Made by a program: the position numbers and the translations under genes. A model generated the notes under the pieces. The model worked only from the letters and a program-made list of their open reading frames with translations, was not told where the DNA came from and searched no databases. A stretch of 64,000 nt of DNA from Dictyostelium discoideum (lineage: Eukaryota), in assembly GCA_000004695.1 (NCBI GenBank), contig CM000150.2:2112001-2176000 (forward strand), in the 5' to 3' direction. Shown in pieces: positions 13,974 through 54,518 of this stretch (positions within the stretch are counted from its first letter, which is position 1; each line of letters begins with the position of its first letter).

Positions 13974-15342
<1,369 letters not shown>

Positions 15343-15557
15343 TCCAAAAAAAAAGAAAAAATCCAAAAAAAAAAGAAAAAATCCAAAAATAAAAGTGAAA
15401 ATCTAAAAAAATATCTTAGATTCTCTTTATCAAATTTACAATTGTTTTTTTTTTTTTTTTTTTTTTTTGAAATTTATTTTTAAAATTTTTATTTTTATTT
15501 TTTTTAATACACCCTTCTTGTTTCTCATAAATATAAGTGTTCATTACACCACCCCTT

Positions 15558-15594
<37 letters not shown>

Positions 15595-15908
15595 ATATAT
15601 TTTTTTATTTTCAATTTTAAACACTTTACAATTGTTTTTTTTTTTATTATTATTATTCATTTTTTTTTTTTTTTTTTTTTTTTATAACTCACAAACCAAT
15701 AATATTTTTTTTTTTTATATTTTTTTTTTTTTTTTTTTATAAAAATATAAAATATGAACATTTATTAAATTTTAATAGGTATACATATAATTAGTAAATA
15801 AATAATTTACAAATACCATCCACACAAACATACAGACACACACACAATACAAATACAATTACAAATATACACAATAAAAAAAAAAAAAAAAATAAAAATA
15901 ATAATAAA

Positions 15909-16143
15909 ATGAAAATTTTACAATCTTTTTTACTTGTGCTACCAATTTTATTTTCAATTTGTTTATTTGTTGCGTCATTAATTACAAATATCGATTTAAA
16001 AACCAAAATTCAAATTAAATCAGTATTTTTTAAATTTACAAAGATTATAAGTATTGGTTTTTATATTTTCCATATAATTTCATGTTTTTATTGGGTATTT
16101 AGTATTGGAGGTGTAAATATTGGAAATAGTTCTATTATTAATT

Positions 16144-16190
<47 letters not shown>

Positions 16191-16811
16191 TATAATTATA
16201 ATAATGAAATAATAAAATATAATGAAATTCAAAATAAATTAACAAGCAATGAATATAATGTTAATAATGAAAATGATGAATTTTTAAAAATGGCAACCAC
16301 ATCATCATCATCATCATCAAATTTACAATTAAAAATGGATTTATCAACATCAACATCATCAACAAAATTATTAATTAATGGTATTAATGATAATGCAAGT
16401 TATAGATACTATTTTAAATTATTAATTCAATCTGTTAAATTTTATCAATTCAATGATACAATTATAATTTTAATACCATTAATATTTGCAGCGATTTCAA
16501 TAATATTTGTATATTTAAAAAATTCATTGGTTAATAGAATTTTATTTATTAAAATCCAAGGATTTAGAAATGAAACACCTGCAGGTTATGATGTTTTAAT
16601 TAGAGTTTTATATATTTTCATGTTTGTTTTCATTTTAATAATTGGTCATTTTGGTAATTTGGTTTGTTTAAAAGTTAATGCTTTTGAAAAAATTGGAATT
16701 TGTAGTTATCATCATAATAATAATAATAGTTTTTGGTATTATCAAGGTTTTATAAATACACTTTATTTAGTATATGGTTATCCTTTATATGAATTGGTTA
16801 ATTTAATTTAA
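15909..16811 (+). CDS. Hypothetical multi-pass membrane protein, 300 aa, with a poly-Asn insert.
   Basis: The ORF has an ATG start. There are hydrophobic segments at the N-terminus (LLVLPILFSICLFVASL), in the middle (IILIPLIFAAISIIFVYL) and near the C-terminus (IFMFVFILIIGHFGNLVCL). No domain was recognised. Confidence 0.4.
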
Positions 16812-17177
16812 ATTTTAATTAATTATAATAAAAAAAAAAAAATGTATATATAAATAAATGTAAATAATCAATCTAATAATAAATAAATAAAAAATAATAG
16901 ATAATAAAAAAATAAAATAAATGTAAAATAAATGTAAAATAAATAAAAAAAAAAAAATTTAATTATTCTTTTTTTTTTTTTAAAATGCAATATATGGATT
17001 GTTTTTTTTTTTTTTTTTTAATTTATTGAGTAAAAAAATGAAAAAATTAATAATTAATTGAAAAACTTATCAAATTGTAAAAAAAAAAAGTTGGGATTAT
17101 GGTTTAAACCATAATCAGTTTTTAAAAAATAAAATTCTTGTTTTTTTAAGTTTTATTGTTTTTAAGTCAGTTATTTG

Positions 17178-17217
<40 letters not shown>

Positions 17218-17298
17218 AAAAAAATATGATCAAAACAATACCATTTTTGTTTTGGTGTAATATTTAAAACATTTGTGTTTCAGTGTAATATCTAAAAA

Positions 17299-17663
17299 AT
17301 GTCATTTTTATGCTCAGAAAATTCATATCAACAACAAAGTAAAATATCAATTGATATTGACAAATCTCTAAAAAATCATAAATTAAAATTAGAGGAAGAA
17401 ATAAGAGTATTAATTTATGGGCAAAAGAAAGTTGGTGTAACAACACTCTTTAAAACTTTTTTGTTAATGGGTGAAAGCCAAATAACACCTGAAGAATTAA
17501 TGGATAATAGAAATAATGTTTATAAAACTATAATTAACCAATTAAAAAAATTCATTATTATTTCAAATAATTCAAAAATTGAATTAGAAAATAATAATAA
17601 TATTGTAATTATTTATTTTATATTTTAAATTTTATTTTTCCCTACTTTCATAGTTACTAATAA

Positions 17664-17718
<55 letters not shown>

Positions 17719-18540
17719 ATGATAGCAAATGTCAAATTTAATATTGGAATTAGATAGTGAGAATTTTTTATGGAATAAAGAAATTGGAGAAACTTGTTTA
17801 AAACTATGGAATGATTCAGGTATTCAAAAAATATTTCAAAGTCAATTTAGTGAGTTTTTTGGTTATTTCTTTAAACATTTACAACGTATATCAGATGAAA
17901 ACTATACTCCAACACCTCAAGATTTAAATTTTATAAAACTTACTCAAAATGGTATAATTGAAGGTAAATTCACTTTTGAACGTTGTCTTATAAAAATGAT
18001 TGAAATGGGTATACAAACTTCAACTTTAAAGAAATGGATTAACTGTTTTAGTGAAGTCCAAGCCATAATATATGTCATTGATTTATCAGTGTAAGTAATT
18101 ATTTTTTTTTTTAAAAAAAAATAAACAATAATAATTAAAATAATAATAATAATTAAAATAGGTATGATATAGTTGAAAGTGAAGATTGTTCAAAATCAAT
18201 AAATAAATTAGAAAAATCTTTAAATGGGTTTAAAGAAATTATTGAATCAAAATATCTTCATGGTTGTGGAGTGATTGTATTTTTCAATAAAAAGGATATT
18301 TTTAGAGAAAAGTTAAAAACTGTACCATTTAAAACCTATGATAAAGATTACATTGGTGAAAATGATTTTGAATCCACAACAAATTTCATTAAAAATAAAT
18401 TACTTGATTATTATTCAAATCCAAATAAGAATGTCTATTTTTTGATTAATGAAGAATCTGAAGTTGATATTTGTAGGAGTACATTCAATATTTTAAAGGA
18501 TATTGTTCTCAACATAACATATAATTCTGTAAAAAATTAA
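17299..18540 (+). CDS. Divergent heterotrimeric G-protein alpha-subunit-like protein. Three exons: join(17299..17604, 17726..18090, 18162..18540), about 350 aa.
   Basis: It aligns along the whole G-alpha fold. N-terminus: MSFLCSE...SKxIDxxLKxxKLKLEEEIRVLIYG. The P-loop position reads YGQKKVGVTT instead of GAGESGKST. ..LWNDSGIQKIFQSQFSEF.. and ..ENYTPTPQDLNFIKLTQNGIIEGKFTFE.. correspond to switch I, with the catalytic Arg and Thr lost. EMGIQTSTLKKWINCFSEVQAIIYVIDLSVYDIVESED corresponds to DVGGQRSERKKWIHCF..AIIFVVALSDYD. FFNKKDIF keeps the NKxD box, and ICRST corresponds to TCATDT. Introns have GTAATT and GTAAGT donors, with phases 0/2. Confidence 0.7.
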
Positions 18541-18596
18541 AATAAAAAAATAAAACAAAATTTTAAAAAATAAATAATAGAATAATTTATTAAATT

Positions 18597-18633
<37 letters not shown>

Positions 18634-18760
18634 TGTTTTCTTTTTTTTTTTTTGTTTTTGTTTTTGTTTTTTTCTTTTTTTTTTTTTTTTTTTCTTTTTT
18701 CTTTTTTCTTTTTTTTTTTAATTTTTTTTTTTTTTTTTTTTTTTTCCAGGTTTTGAAAGT

Positions 18761-20559
<1,799 letters not shown>

Positions 20560-21060
20560 CTTCAAAACAAGATTTTAGTAATTCCAGTTTGTATTGTTAT
20601 ATATTTATATTAAATTTTTATCTTTACTTTAATAAATTTATATAAAAATTTTTTTATTTTTTTTATTTTTTTATTTATTTATTTTTTTTTTTATTTTTTA
20701 TTTTATTTTTATTATAAACTATACTAAAATATTGTCTATTTTTGTTGTTAAAAATGATATTTGTTAATAGGATACTATTTGAAGTACTAAATGAGAGAGT
20801 GTGTGTGTGTGTGTGTCTTTTTTTATGTTAAAATAAGTAAAAATAAAATAAAAAAAAACAAAAATAAAAAAAAGTGTGGTAAAAAAAAAAAATAAAAAAA
20901 AAAAAAAAAAAAACAATTCAACTGATTATAAAAGGTGTGTGATACTTTTTTTTTTTTTTTTTTCTCAAAATCTTGGAATTAAATGGTGTGTGTGGTGTGA
21001 TGTGGATTGTTGTGTGGATGTATAGCGAGAGATGATCAAAAAAAAAATAAAAATAAAAAT

Positions 21061-21096
<36 letters not shown>

Positions 21097-21727
21097 AATA
21101 AAAATAAAAACTTACAAAAAATAAAATAAATAAAAAAATAAAAAGGTAACTGATTTGATTTGATTTCTTTTTTTTTTGGTTAATCTTATTTTAATAATAT
21201 TATTATTGTTTTTTATTTTTATTGCCGTTGTGAAAAAAAAGACTTTGAAAAATTTTAAAAAAAAAAAAAAAAAAAAATTTTAAAAAATAAAAATAAAAAA
21301 TAAAAAAAAAAAAAATAAAACAAAAAAAAAGATTTTTATACACATTTTTTAAAATTTTAGATAATATCCTACTTCTTATCTTTTTAAACTCGATCGTATT
21401 TTTTTTTTTTTTTTTTTAAACAATATTTTTTATTATTTTCCTATTATTAATTTAGAATCATTTATTCTTAAAAAAGTAAAAACTATATTTTTTTTTCTTT
21501 TTTAACTATCCATCTTGAGGTATGCGGATATTGAAGTTCTAGGTAATCCAACCCTATTGTTTTTAACAACACTTGTGAAAAAAAAAAAAAAAATTATGAC
21601 CTTCATATAATTTAAGAGTGAGAAGTAGGGTTGTGGATTTGTTAGGGGCGTTTTTTTTATTTTTTTTTTACATACAACCTAATTTTTTATTTTTCACACA
21701 CATATTTTCAAATAAAATATGTAAAAA

Positions 21728-21786
21728 AAAAAAGTCCAAATCCCTTTCAAATAATTTAACTCTCTTTTAATCAACTTTTATTATCA
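21728..21786. repeat. Left arm of an inverted-repeat pair. The partner is at 24244..24298.
   Basis: aaaaagtccaaatccctttcaaataatttaactctcttttaatcaacttttatt is the reverse complement of gat..aataaaagttgattaaaagagagttaaattatttgaaaggggatttggacttttt at 24244..24298. There is one indel and about 55 of 57 identities, with weaker similarity extending about 15 bp further. Confidence 0.8.
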
Positions 21787-21977
21787 AAATAAAAATAAAA
21801 ATAAAAATAAAAATAAAAATAAAGAAATATATAATAGCGGTCAACCCCACCATCATCTTCAACAACAACTTCACCATCATCTTGTTAATTAATTACACAT
21901 ACACTCTATCACACACCCTTATCAACTTAATTTATTTAAATCAAAACCCAACGAACAAACAATCAAACCATTAACAC

Positions 21978-22021
<44 letters not shown>

Positions 22022-45479: not shown

Positions 45480-45949
45480 ATGAGCTTTGCAAGTAGCACG
45501 GTCTCAAATTCTAATAATAGTTCACTAACATCCTCATCATTAATCAACGCTAACAATATTTTATTCAGTTTTGAAAAATCAACATACAACAAAGAATCTA
45601 ATAATAATAGTGATAATAATAATAATAATAATAATAATAATAGTGATAATAATAACGATAATAATCAAAATAAAAATAAAACAACACAAATAAAATCAAA
45701 AGCAAAATCAGAATCATCACCACCACAACCAAAAATTGTAATATGTAAAATTTGTAATAAAAAAGGTCATAAGGAAAAAGAATGCCCCACACCGGATCTT
45801 AATAAAATCTGTTCAAATTGTAATAAAATTGGACATATCTCTTCAAATTGTAAGGTTATTCATGTTAATTTTGCAAGATCACCAAAACCACAACAAAATC
45901 AAAAAGAAAGAAAACCAAGAAATCAAAAACAACAACCACAACAACAACC

Positions 45950-45980
<31 letters not shown>

Positions 45981-46298
45981 GATCAACAACAAGAGCAACA
46001 ACAAAAACAAAAACCACAAACAAATTCAAGTAATTCAACTACACCATCTCCTACATATTCTTCACCACCACAACAAGCACCACAACCAAAACAACAATTA
46101 AAAAATGAACCAATCATTAAAAAAAGATTAGAATTAAAAAAAGTTGAAGTAGAAACTTTAAAACTTTCAAAAGATTTACCAAATAAACAATATTGTTTAT
46201 CAAATGGTGATGATATATTATTATATGATTCAGAAAAATTAGACTCATTTATTAATAGTCTTGTAAATTCAAAAATATCATCAATTTCAATTCCATTC

Positions 46299-46392
<94 letters not shown>

Positions 46393-48359
46393 GTGATCAA
46401 TATTTACCAATAATTGAATCACTCCATAAAAAAAATATAAATATTATTTTTAAAATTCAAATAGTACCAGATTCTTCAATATCTTGTATTAATAGTAATG
46501 AATTCCAACAACAATTTAAATCAAAAATTTCAAAAATTATTAATGATTTAAAACCAGATGGATTATTTTTTACAAATTTAAAACTATCTCATAAAGACAA
46601 TAAGGAAGAAGAAGAAGAAGAAGAACAAGAAGAATTATGCCAGAACTGTAAAGAAATGATGATTGAAAATGAACTAAATCCAAATGAACCTAAAGATAAC
46701 TTAATCTTTAATGATTATTCAATTGACCAATTTAAAAGATTTATTTCTCAATTCATAATTTCAATAACTACAAACTCAACATCAACTACAACAACAACTA
46801 CAACAACTACAACTACTACTACAAACACTAATAAAAAGAAAAAGAAAGCAATTCCAATTAGTGTAGCATTTGAAAATCAATTTAACAATTTTATTCAATT
46901 AAATAAAGAATCATTAATTACTTCAAATTACCAAGAGATTCAATATAAAGATCAAATTAATTTCTCATTATTCTCGCATTACTCAAAAACTTTATCAAAT
47001 CAATCAATTGGTATTATTGATCTTTTCAATCAAAATCAACAACAACAACAACCAATTATTAAACCAATTGATACAATTTATTATGAATCACTTTATTCAC
47101 TATTATTAAATGGAAAATACTCATTGAACAACAACAACAACAACAACAATAATAATAACAATAATAATTGGGATGATAAATTATTAAATTATATTGGTAA
47201 AATTAATACATTAATTGATAATCAAGAAATTAAAATTCATAAAAATTGTAAATCAGTAGCTGAAATTGCAATTGTAATTCCAAATTATCAAAATCAATTA
47301 AATAATAACAATTGTGAAGAATCAATCAAACAATCAATTTATGGTGCAATTAGATTATTAGAAGATAATAATTATCAATTTAATGTAATCACTCAAATTG
47401 AAACAATTGCTTTAAATGATTTATCTCGTTACAAACTTTTAATTTTACCAGATCATTGTATTTTAACTTTTGATCAATCAAATAGATTACAAAAGTATAT
47501 TAATCAATGTGGTGGTTCAGTATTAATGTCAAATAGATCTGGTTTAATTGAATCAATTAATAATGACAACAACAACAATAATAATAGTAATAATAATAAT
47601 AATAGTAACACCAGTTTCAATAAATTAGAATTTAGTGATTCTATTTTAGATAAATCAAAACTACTTTCAACAAAAAAGAATTTTAATATTACTTCAAAGT
47701 CGCTAGCAATGAATGAATTATTTAATAATATTGATATTGACTATTTATCAAATTGTTTAATTGTTAATAATGGTTATGATGGTTGTACTCAATTAAAACA
47801 ATTACAAGACGAATCTTCAATAGTATTAATGAATAGTATAAATAGTAATAGTAATAAATCTCCAGCAATCTTATTAAATACAAACCAAAGAACAATTTAT
47901 TGTGTCTTTCCAATATTCCAACAATATTATCAATTTGGTCCATCAAATATGGAATTTATATCAAATATTTTCACAACTTTATTGGATCAAATTTTATTAA
48001 CTGATAATTTAATTTCAATAAATCCAATTTCTTCTGATATTAAAGTATTTATTTATAATCAACAACAACAAAAGTCAAATTCAACAAATAAAAATGATGA
48101 AAGTGATAAATACATTATTCATTTTTTAAATTTTAAAAAGCAACTTGATAACTCTGGTGAATTTTATAAACAAGGTTGTAAACTTGGAGTGGTTAGTGTA
48201 AATATAAAATTACCAAATAGCTCTGTATCCTCTGTATATTTAAAAACAAGTTCAACAATCATCCCAATTACAAATTTTAAAGTTTTAAATAATCATTTTA
48301 TTTCTGAAATTCCATTAAATCATTCTTTCCAAACTTTATTTATTCAATTTTCAAATTAA
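45480..48359 (+). CDS. CCHC zinc-knuckle protein, 959 aa, single exon, with very long polyQ/polyN/polyT tracts.
   Basis: Two CX2CX4HX4C knuckles are present: CKICNKKGHKEKEC and CSNCNKIGHISSNC. There is a Q-rich region (QQQPQQQQQQQQQQDQQQEQQQ), N runs and a (T)13 run. The start is an ATG. Confidence 0.55.
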
Positions 48360-52853: not shown

Positions 52854-52925
52854 TAGCTTCTCTAGGTTTCGATCCTAGGACCTCGAGGTTATGGGCCTCG
52901 CACTCTACCCCTGAGTTAAGAAGCT
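52854..52925 (-). tRNA. Initiator tRNA-Met (anticodon CAT), 72 nt.
   Basis: AGCTTCT-TA-ACTC-AGGGGTA-GAGT-G-CGAGG-CCCATAA-CCTCG-AGGTC-CTAGG-ATCGAAA-CCTAG-AGAAGCT-A. All four stems pair perfectly. The anticodon loop is C-C-CAT-A-A. The T-loop is GATCGAAAC with A54 and A60, and there are three G-C pairs in the anticodon stem, which are hallmarks of eukaryotic cytoplasmic initiator tRNA. Confidence 0.85.
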
Positions 52926-54446: not shown

Positions 54447-54518
54447 AGCTTCTTAACTCAGGGGTAGAGTGCGAGGCCCATAACCTCGAGGTCCTAGGAT
54501 CGAAACCTAGAGAAGCTA
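54447..54518 (+). tRNA. Initiator tRNA-Met (anticodon CAT), 72 nt, identical to copy 1 but in opposite orientation.
   Basis: Same sequence as 52854..52925 reverse-complemented. About 60 bp of upstream flank is also shared, with one mismatch. Confidence 0.85.

Follow-up and report, generated by a model that had tools for sequence, protein, structure and literature searches.

Can a G protein alpha (G-alpha) subunit be maintained by selection once most of its nucleotide-binding motifs are gone, and what could it then do? This question is raised by a gene in a stretch of 64,000 nucleotides of Dictyostelium discoideum DNA (assembly GCA_000004695.1, contig CM000150.2, positions 2,112,001 to 2,176,000 of the forward strand), hereafter the window, which has the AT-rich composition of Dictyostelium DNA (21.7% G+C). 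An earlier note, made from the letters alone, had placed a G-alpha-like candidate pseudo-GTPase at positions 17299-18540 and suggested that it might be one of the more divergent annotated gpa genes. The interval is exactly the coding sequence of gpaJ, on the forward strand from start codon to stop codon, with three exons separated by GT..AG introns. Its spliced product of 349 residues is 100% identical (349/349 residues) to XP_646975.1 / EAL72990.1, 'G-protein subunit alpha 10 [Dictyostelium discoideum AX4]', and the UniProt entry for the gpaJ product is Q55EP5, 'Guanine nucleotide-binding protein-like alpha-10 subunit'. The locus is gpaJ, the annotated D. discoideum gene for Galpha10, and the guess of a divergent gpa gene was right. 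Both the gene and its class, labelled 'G-alpha-like' in UniProt, are already known, and the finding is correct without being a discovery. We add here the origin of the gene from Galpha6, a map of the constraint on its product, the decay of the NKxD motif in its orthologues and a probable second degenerate Galpha6 copy in Polysphondylium violaceum. Overall, gpaJ is a young and rapidly evolving Galpha6 copy whose product has the G-alpha fold, lacks nearly all residues required for GTP binding and hydrolysis, and probably works as a nucleotide-independent binding protein, not as a switch.

Over its full length, Galpha10 belongs to the G-alpha fold family. It matches the Pfam G-alpha profile PF00503 with E = 5e-78 and 263 bits (cut-off 48.8 bits), and the match spans residues 15-339, i.e. 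profile positions 2-333 of 333. Galphai/o chains of the Protein Data Bank (PDB) match it at E values of ~1e-43 to 1e-45, and the protein is colinear with Galphai1. An AlphaFold2 (AF2) run on the six orthologues alone was poor, with a predicted local distance difference test (pLDDT) score of 53, and an alignment of 103 sequences was used instead. The resulting model (pLDDT 87.6, predicted template-modelling score 0.79) contains alphaN, the Ras-like domain, the inserted helical domain and alpha5, and the best 50 matches retrieved from the PDB with Foldseek are all G-alpha chains. The colinearity with G-alpha described earlier, and the profile match that was to substantiate it, are thus borne out over the full length. 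The PF00503 match and the domain architecture are those of a G-alpha subunit; the canonical G1, G2, G3 and G5 motifs are missing.

In global template-modelling (TM) score, the AF2 model reaches only 0.53-0.58 against closed, nucleotide-bound G-alpha structures, and its top scores (0.60-0.68) were obtained with G-alpha chains from receptor-G protein complexes solved by cryo-electron microscopy. This pattern hints that the model may hold the helical domain apart from the Ras domain.

We compared the nucleotide-binding motifs with those of Galphai1, whose numbering is used for motif positions. The P-loop (G1), GAGESGKST in Galphai1, reads GQKKVGVTT in Galpha10, with a K46V replacement, and does not fit the consensus GxxxxGK[ST]. 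In switch I (G2), RVKTTG is aligned to KLTQNG, and both the catalytic Arg and the Mg-binding Thr are replaced (R178K and T181Q). The loss of these two residues had been recognized in the earlier note, albeit in a register, LTQNGI, that was off by one; its other readings were correct. Switch II (G3) reads EMGIQT in place of DVGGQR, with the replacements D200E and G203I and with Q204 kept. G4 is NKKD in both Galphai1 and AX4 Galpha10. The degenerate G5 box, absent from the earlier note, is NEES in place of TCAT (4/4 positions changed), and the nucleotide contacts D150/S151 and L175/R176 of the helical domain and linker are also replaced. In canonical subunits, T181 is a Mg ligand, G203 senses the gamma-phosphate, D150/S151 and R176 provide ribose and phosphate contacts, and TCAT is the guanine box. 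Switch II/alpha2 of Galpha10 keeps Q204, S206, K209, K210, W211, C214 and F215.

Could these deviant motifs stem from a wrong gene model or a sequencing error in the window? The gene model yields precisely the curated protein and the replacements recur in seven independent assemblies; the probability of such an artefact is negligible. No canonical P-loop, DxGGQ, RxxTxG or TCAxD peptide was found in the six frames of 14000-22000, which rules out the alternative exons or frames that might have restored canonical motifs. Since all degenerate motifs are located within exons and no canonical peptide is encoded nearby, alternative splicing cannot restore them.

In protein searches, Galpha10 turned up nowhere outside the D. 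discoideum complex. A word-indexed search returned six clusters only, and more distant relatives came from an exhaustive profile search. Identity to AX4 Galpha10 is 93% in two other D. discoideum strains, 82% and 70% in two 'D. cf. discoideum' assemblies, 66% and 65% in the two D. citrinum assemblies, and 61% in D. dimigraforme. At the DNA level, the 7/7 orthologue loci have the same three-exon structure, an exon 2 of 365 nt and an intact open reading frame (ORF), which makes eight genomes with AX4. The same motif replacements recur in the other seven genomes, all from the D. discoideum complex, and the motif losses are therefore neither a peculiarity of AX4 nor a gene-model error. Among the orthologue clusters, K46V, R178K, T181Q/R, G203I/T and A326E are each present in 6/6, position 200 is Glu or Asp, and Q204 is kept. 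The destroyed P-loop and the loss of the switch II Gly, both read correctly from AX4 alone, are thus conserved among orthologues. By comparison, all Galpha6 sequences (7/7) are canonical at every position that is degenerate in Galpha10.

The NKxD box had been described as intact. This is true of AX4, of one 'D. cf. discoideum' assembly and of D. dimigraforme, which all have NKKD, but the box is lost in 3/6 orthologue clusters, with DKME in a copy denoted P0003 and SKKD in both D. citrinum assemblies. The orthologues thus do not preserve guanine recognition either. P0003 (L003:6001-7343, from the D. cf. discoideum assembly GCA_054859235.1) is the most degenerate Galpha10 copy, as its P-loop also carries a six-residue insertion. 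It lies outside the syntenic locus, between Ribosomal_L22e and IP_trans genes, and its match to the window is limited to the gene with ~140 bp upstream and ~230 bp downstream.

Galpha10 has lost the Lys of the P-loop, the Thr that binds Mg, the arginine finger, the Gly at the gamma-phosphate and the guanine box; no receptor-driven GTP cycle is therefore expected, and it likely has no function as a receptor-driven GTP/GDP switch. Judging from its sequence, it almost certainly does not hydrolyse GTP and probably carries no nucleotide, i.e. it is a pseudo-GTPase. Nevertheless, part of the pocket persists. G40, G45, T48, Q204, K270 and mostly D272 are still present, and conserved lysines, K44 (invariant) and K43 (5/6 orthologue clusters), lie inside the P-loop remnant. 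One may thus envisage that Galpha10 still binds nucleotide via an unorthodox pocket in which K43 or K44 replaces K46, as in WNK kinases. It would then hold GTP without hydrolysing it and act like a G-alpha that is permanently 'on' or exchanges slowly. Switch I being the most conserved element of the protein would suit such a pocket, and the degenerate extra-large G protein (XLG) subunits of plants have very low but measurable GTPgammaS binding (PMC8584482). We nevertheless consider this improbable: all five G boxes are affected at once, including T181, G203, D150/S151, R176 and TCAT, and the P-loop and NKxD drift further in the orthologues, as seen in P0003 and D. citrinum. In addition, the link from the pocket to receptors runs through alpha1 and alpha5, and these rank among the protein's least constrained parts. 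A nucleotide-free Galpha10 remains our preferred reading.

We estimated the ratios of non-synonymous to synonymous substitution rates (dN/dS) by the Nei-Gojobori method, and departure from neutrality by a Fisher test. For gpaJ, dN/dS is 0.35-0.51 in the distant pairs, all of which are significantly below neutrality (p 1e-4 to 1e-10). In the closest pairs it amounts to 0.53-0.75, which is not significantly below 1, and constraint may have relaxed recently within the D. discoideum clade. The coding segments of the flanking genes have dN/dS values of 0.05-0.43, mostly 0.05-0.2, and the dN of gpaJ is 3-10 times theirs at similar dS.

These values might be taken to mean that Galpha10 is a redundant duplicate becoming a pseudogene, with no current function and with motif losses that represent neutral decay. 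The ratios of the closest pairs and the protein evolving faster than its neighbours would be in line with this, as would the confinement of gpaJ to one young clade and the lack of any phenotype or functional study in the literature searched. However, the ORF is intact and the same two introns and splice sites are found in the eight genomes, at dS values of up to 0.64, and the distant pairs depart from neutrality without exception. Furthermore, constraint is heterogeneous along the protein (dN/dS 0.18-0.73), with nearly invariant stretches of 30 residues, and is therefore not the product of neutral decay. Ongoing loss of the gene appears even less probable to us than an unorthodox pocket.

gpaJ is thus still under purifying selection, chiefly at switch II/alpha2 and alphaG-alpha4. 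With approximate secondary-structure boundaries that follow Galphai1 structures, dN/dS is 0.18 in switch II/alpha2, the most constrained segment, 0.24 in G4-alphaG-alpha4, 0.41 in the N-terminus and alphaN, 0.58 in beta1, P-loop and alpha1, 0.62 in the helical domain, 0.73 in alpha3-beta5 and 0.58 in alpha5 and the C-terminal tail. In terms of identity, the most conserved elements are switch I (0.85), alpha4 (0.84) and the alphaG-alpha4 loop (0.81). Conversely, alpha1, alphaF, beta6 and alpha5 are among the least conserved, with 0.46-0.56 in Galpha10 against 95-100% between two Galpha6 of the D. discoideum complex. Averaged over pairs of Galpha10 sequences, identity falls to 0.53 in alpha5 and 0.27 in the tail, versus 0.95 and 1.0 in Galpha6 (D. 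dimigraforme and D. firmibasis), and the extreme C-terminus of Galpha10 varies in length and sequence among orthologues. In canonical G-alpha subunits, the extreme C-terminus is the receptor-docking part. The alphaG-loop-alpha4 patch shows the opposite trend, with higher conservation in Galpha10 than in Galpha6. A relaxed nucleotide pocket and alpha5 together with a kept switch II/alpha2 form the pattern expected of a nucleotide-independent binding protein.

Galpha10 thus combines what is expected of a pseudo-GTPase, namely a kept fold, essential residues lost across orthologues and maintenance by selection, although the selection signal is not significant for the closest pairs taken alone. 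Sequence and evolution support the earlier proposal of a candidate pseudo-GTPase, through the fixed motif losses and the pattern of purifying selection.

Where does this protein come from? When 1.84 billion representative proteins were searched exhaustively with a profile, a single Galpha10 cluster scored 639 bits and the next score was 232 bits, with nothing between. This best non-self match is P. violaceum CYY_007074 (KAF2071602.1), and the match ranked after it is a fully canonical Synstelium protein of the Galpha6 (gpaF) orthogroup. We found this orthogroup in H. album, A. subglobosum, T. lacteum, P. violaceum, D. purpureum, D. dimigraforme and D. firmibasis. A neighbour-joining (NJ) tree with 300 bootstraps places Galpha10 and CYY_007074 within the Galpha6 clade (96%). 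Galpha10 is 40-41% identical to the Galpha6 proteins of the D. discoideum complex, 33-36% to other Galpha6 proteins and 26-31% to other Galpha subunits. The Galpha6 genes of P. violaceum and D. purpureum have three introns, like CYY_007074, and the middle intron is absent both from D. dimigraforme Galpha6 and from the 3/3 Galpha10 genes that were mapped (AX4, D. citrinum and D. dimigraforme). On the strength of the NJ nesting, the highest identity, and the shared intron positions with their derived intron loss, Galpha10 derives from the Galpha6 lineage, and the most parsimonious scenario is a DNA-level duplicate that would have arisen after the split from D. purpureum. A one-to-one orthology with gpaF was rejected, as D. 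dimigraforme carries on different contigs both a canonical Galpha6 (P0180) and a Galpha10 (P0006) that are 40% identical; Galpha10 is a derived paralogue.

Galpha6 is the closest canonical relative of Galpha10, and besides two intron positions and phases and the loss of the third intron, the two proteins share an N-terminal Cys with no Gly2 (MAFLC in Galpha6, MSFLC in Galpha10) and a KxVPFxTYD motif after alphaG. They differ in that Galpha6 retains every nucleotide-binding and catalytic residue and strongly conserves alpha1, alpha5 and switch II. Identity between Galpha10 and the Galpha6 of the same species is only 40%.

CYY_007074 (P0007, at L008:10001-11276) is another degenerate relative of Galpha6. 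Switch I (QKNKSINE), switch II (DINVQN) and G5 (VNAL) are lost, but unlike Galpha10 it has an intact P-loop (GQSGSGKT) and three introns, and FFNKKD is kept. It is closest to P. violaceum Galpha6 (46%), with the same three introns, and its locus shares no synteny with the window. A status as positional orthologue of Galpha10 was therefore rejected on synteny, intron structure and identity, despite the NJ grouping, and CYY_007074 is probably a separate degenerate Galpha6 duplicate. The NJ tree groups it with Galpha10 at 98% bootstrap, in conflict with the intron-based scenario, and long-branch attraction is the most parsimonious explanation of this grouping. Alternatively, Galpha10 and CYY_007074 might go back to one older duplication, with intron loss in parallel or gene conversion afterwards.

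How might a G-alpha subunit that does not cycle act? As Galpha10 has no Gly2, it is not N-myristoylated. M1, S2, F3, L4 and C5 are invariant in 6/6 orthologue clusters, and the N-terminal Cys column is invariant across the 26/26 Galpha sequences of one alignment. With no Gly2, an invariant MSFLC and an invariant Cys column, palmitoylation of Cys5 is the likely membrane anchor. Held at membranes in this way, Galpha10 would act through protein-protein contacts of its retained switch II/alpha2 face. In canonical G-alpha subunits, this face is the binding surface for Gbeta-gamma, effectors and regulators of G protein signalling (RGS), and substitutions of G203 are classic mutations that block heterotrimer dissociation. 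The likeliest mode of action would be constitutive binding of the single Gbeta-gamma dimer, as a buffer, decoy or scaffold; alternatively, another partner may bind switch II. The conserved alpha4 patch might represent a second interface, for a second partner.

The identity of the switch II partner can be proposed only tentatively. The Gbeta-contact positions I184, E186, K197, Q204, S206, K209, K210, W211, C214 and F215 are retained and nearly invariant in Galpha10, according to the contact list of Galphai1-beta1-gamma2 (PDB 1GP2). Three further contact positions, E207, H213 and E216, are changed. In canonical Galpha subunits, effectors, RGS and GoLoco proteins also bind to switch II/alpha2, so that conservation of this face is no specific evidence for Gbeta-gamma. 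We regard Gbeta-gamma as a plausible but somewhat doubtful candidate. The changed contacts and the other ligands of this face weigh against our reading of Galpha10, together with the points met above: the residues left in the pocket, the ratios of the closest pairs and the possible relaxation, the approximate structural boundaries, and the NJ grouping with CYY_007074.

A comparison with engineered dominant-negative Galpha subunits (S47N/G203A/E245A/A326S; for example PDB 7ts0, 5tdh and 1gg2) is instructive in this respect. These mutants have a lowered nucleotide affinity and keep the heterotrimer together. The same four positions are altered in Galpha10, which has T at S47, I/T at G203, K at E245 and E at A326. 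In contrast with the engineered proteins, which keep K46, R178, T181, a conserved alpha5 and receptor coupling, Galpha10 lacks K46, R178 and T181, and its C-terminal tail is unconstrained. It is conceivable, though rather unlikely as a whole, that Galpha6 gave rise independently to nucleotide-dead copies at least twice, and that Galpha10 is a natural 'dominant-negative' that titrates or locks Gbeta-gamma. In such a scheme, a palmitoylated, permanently nucleotide-free and receptor-uncoupled Galpha10 would titrate Gbeta-gamma, or lock it in a signalling-silent or scaffold complex, and social amoebae would possess a nucleotide-independent branch of G-protein signalling that parallels the plant XLGs.

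The plant XLG proteins provide the best functional analogy for Galpha10, as they also combine a G-alpha fold with deviant G boxes. XLG1-3 have very low GTPgammaS binding and are probably nucleotide-free in vivo; they partner with Gbeta-gamma and are functional after GTP binding has been mutated away (PMC8584482). There are clear differences, however. XLG proteins have a long N-terminal extension, Cys-rich and with a nuclear localization signal, whereas Galpha10 has 349 residues and its profile match starts at residue 15. The evolutionary origins are independent. Without this extension, Galpha10 is an analogue and not a member of the XLG family.

Galpha10 has been listed, and placed in a tree, among the 'twelve conventional Galpha subunits' (PMC12849267), and it showed no interaction with RACK1 in yeast two-hybrid assays (PMC4094278). 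It appears nowhere else in the literature searched, in which no paper names Q55EP5 and nothing relevant was found on heterotrimeric pseudoGTPases. That catalytic motifs deviate in some Dictyostelium Galpha subunits was already mentioned in a review, which cites Anantharaman et al. 2011 for it (PMC8584482). Galpha11 (gpaK) of D. discoideum presumably also has a '-like' label in UniProt.

The features of gpaJ are collected in Table 1.

Table 1. Exons, introns and motifs of gpaJ, with their positions in the window.
Feature	Position	Strand	Description
Exon 1	17299..17604	+	Codons 1-102; 100% match to the annotated protein; donor gtaat at 17605; N-terminus MSFLC, alphaN, beta1, degenerate P-loop, alpha1, start of helical domain
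N-terminal MSFLC	17299..17313	+	Without Gly2
Degenerate G1/P-loop GQKKVGVTT	17419..17445	+	Residues 41-49; aligned to GAGESGKST; Lys to Val in 6/6 clusters
Intron 1	17605..17725	+	Phase 0; same position and phase as a Galpha6 intron
Exon 2	17726..18090	+	Codons 103-224, last codon split; 365 nt in 8/8 genomes; helical domain, switch I, beta2-beta3, switch II, beta4
Degenerate G2/switch I KLTQNG	17936..17953	+	Residues 173-178; aligned to RVKTTG; R178K, T181Q
Switch II/alpha2, EMGIQTSTLKKWINCFSE	18002..18055	+	Residues 195-212; DxxGQ degenerate (D200E, G203I)
Intron 2	18091..18161	+	Phase 2; position and phase common to Galpha6 genes
Exon 3	18162..18540	+	Codons 224-349 and stop codon; switch III, alpha3, beta5, NKKD, alphaG, alpha4, beta6, degenerate G5, alpha5
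G4 box NKKD	18286..18297	+	Residues 266-269; intact in AX4
alphaG-loop-alpha4 patch, ...KLKTVPFKTYDKDYIGxNDFESTTNFIKNK...	18289..18408	+	Residues 267-306; dN/dS 0.24
Degenerate G5 NEES	18448..18459	+	Residues 320-323; aligned to TCAT
alpha5 helix and C-terminal tail	18463..18537	+	Residues 325-349; poorly conserved; tail of variable length

Most of intron 1 consists of a (TAAA)n microsatellite (window 17640-17722), a repeat that also matches elsewhere in related loci. Synteny with the window was found at 6/7 orthologue loci, each with an oppositely oriented PDEase_I-type gene directly downstream, followed in most of them by an alpha-actinin-like gene. In the window, the gene just downstream of gpaJ occupies 19024-21650 on the reverse strand, and its homologues are called PDEase_I (class I cyclic-nucleotide phosphodiesterase). 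For the catalytic exons of this gene, identity is 93-98% across species whose Galpha10 proteins share only 61-84%.

Galpha10 of the D. discoideum strains ACTFIW and ACTFIR is 7% different from that of AX4. A locus-specific excess of polymorphism at gpaJ was considered and rejected, as the whole 15-kb region is only ~90% identical to AX4, which marks both strains simply as divergent lineages. In two assemblies labelled D. discoideum (L006 and L007; GCA_054859355.1 and GCA_054859385.1), DNA identity to AX4 is ~90% over ~9-15 kb around gpaJ, and the dS of the flanking genes is 0.06-0.09. These strains may be cryptic lineages, because this divergence is far above that expected within one D. discoideum population.

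Other observations concern a distant protein and the rest of the window. P0010, a 721-residue protein from a JGI metagenome, is a tandem double G-alpha in which both halves are deviant, with GPGNCGKS and DVGAERSQ in one and GPRNGGKT and EDLGARTLE in the other. The window has two divergent tRNA-Met (CAT) genes ~1.5 kb apart, at 52854-52925 on the reverse strand and 54447-54518 on the forward strand. The only Pfam match of a 959-residue ORF at 45480-48359 on the forward strand is a CCHC zinc-knuckle, and this ORF may code for a retroelement Gag-like protein or be a low-complexity Dictyostelium gene.

Dictyostelium is a main model for chemotaxis driven by G protein-coupled receptors, and it has one Gbeta and one Ggamma for twelve Galpha subunits. 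The value of the present analysis lies in a sharpened, testable hypothesis, which specifies a recent origin from Galpha6 and which surfaces of Galpha10 are under selection and which are not. If it is true that a non-cycling Galpha presents a switch II face, the availability of Gbeta-gamma would have to be modelled differently in Dictyostelium. Galpha10 would then represent a second, independently evolved case of nucleotide-independent G-alpha signalling beside the plant XLGs.

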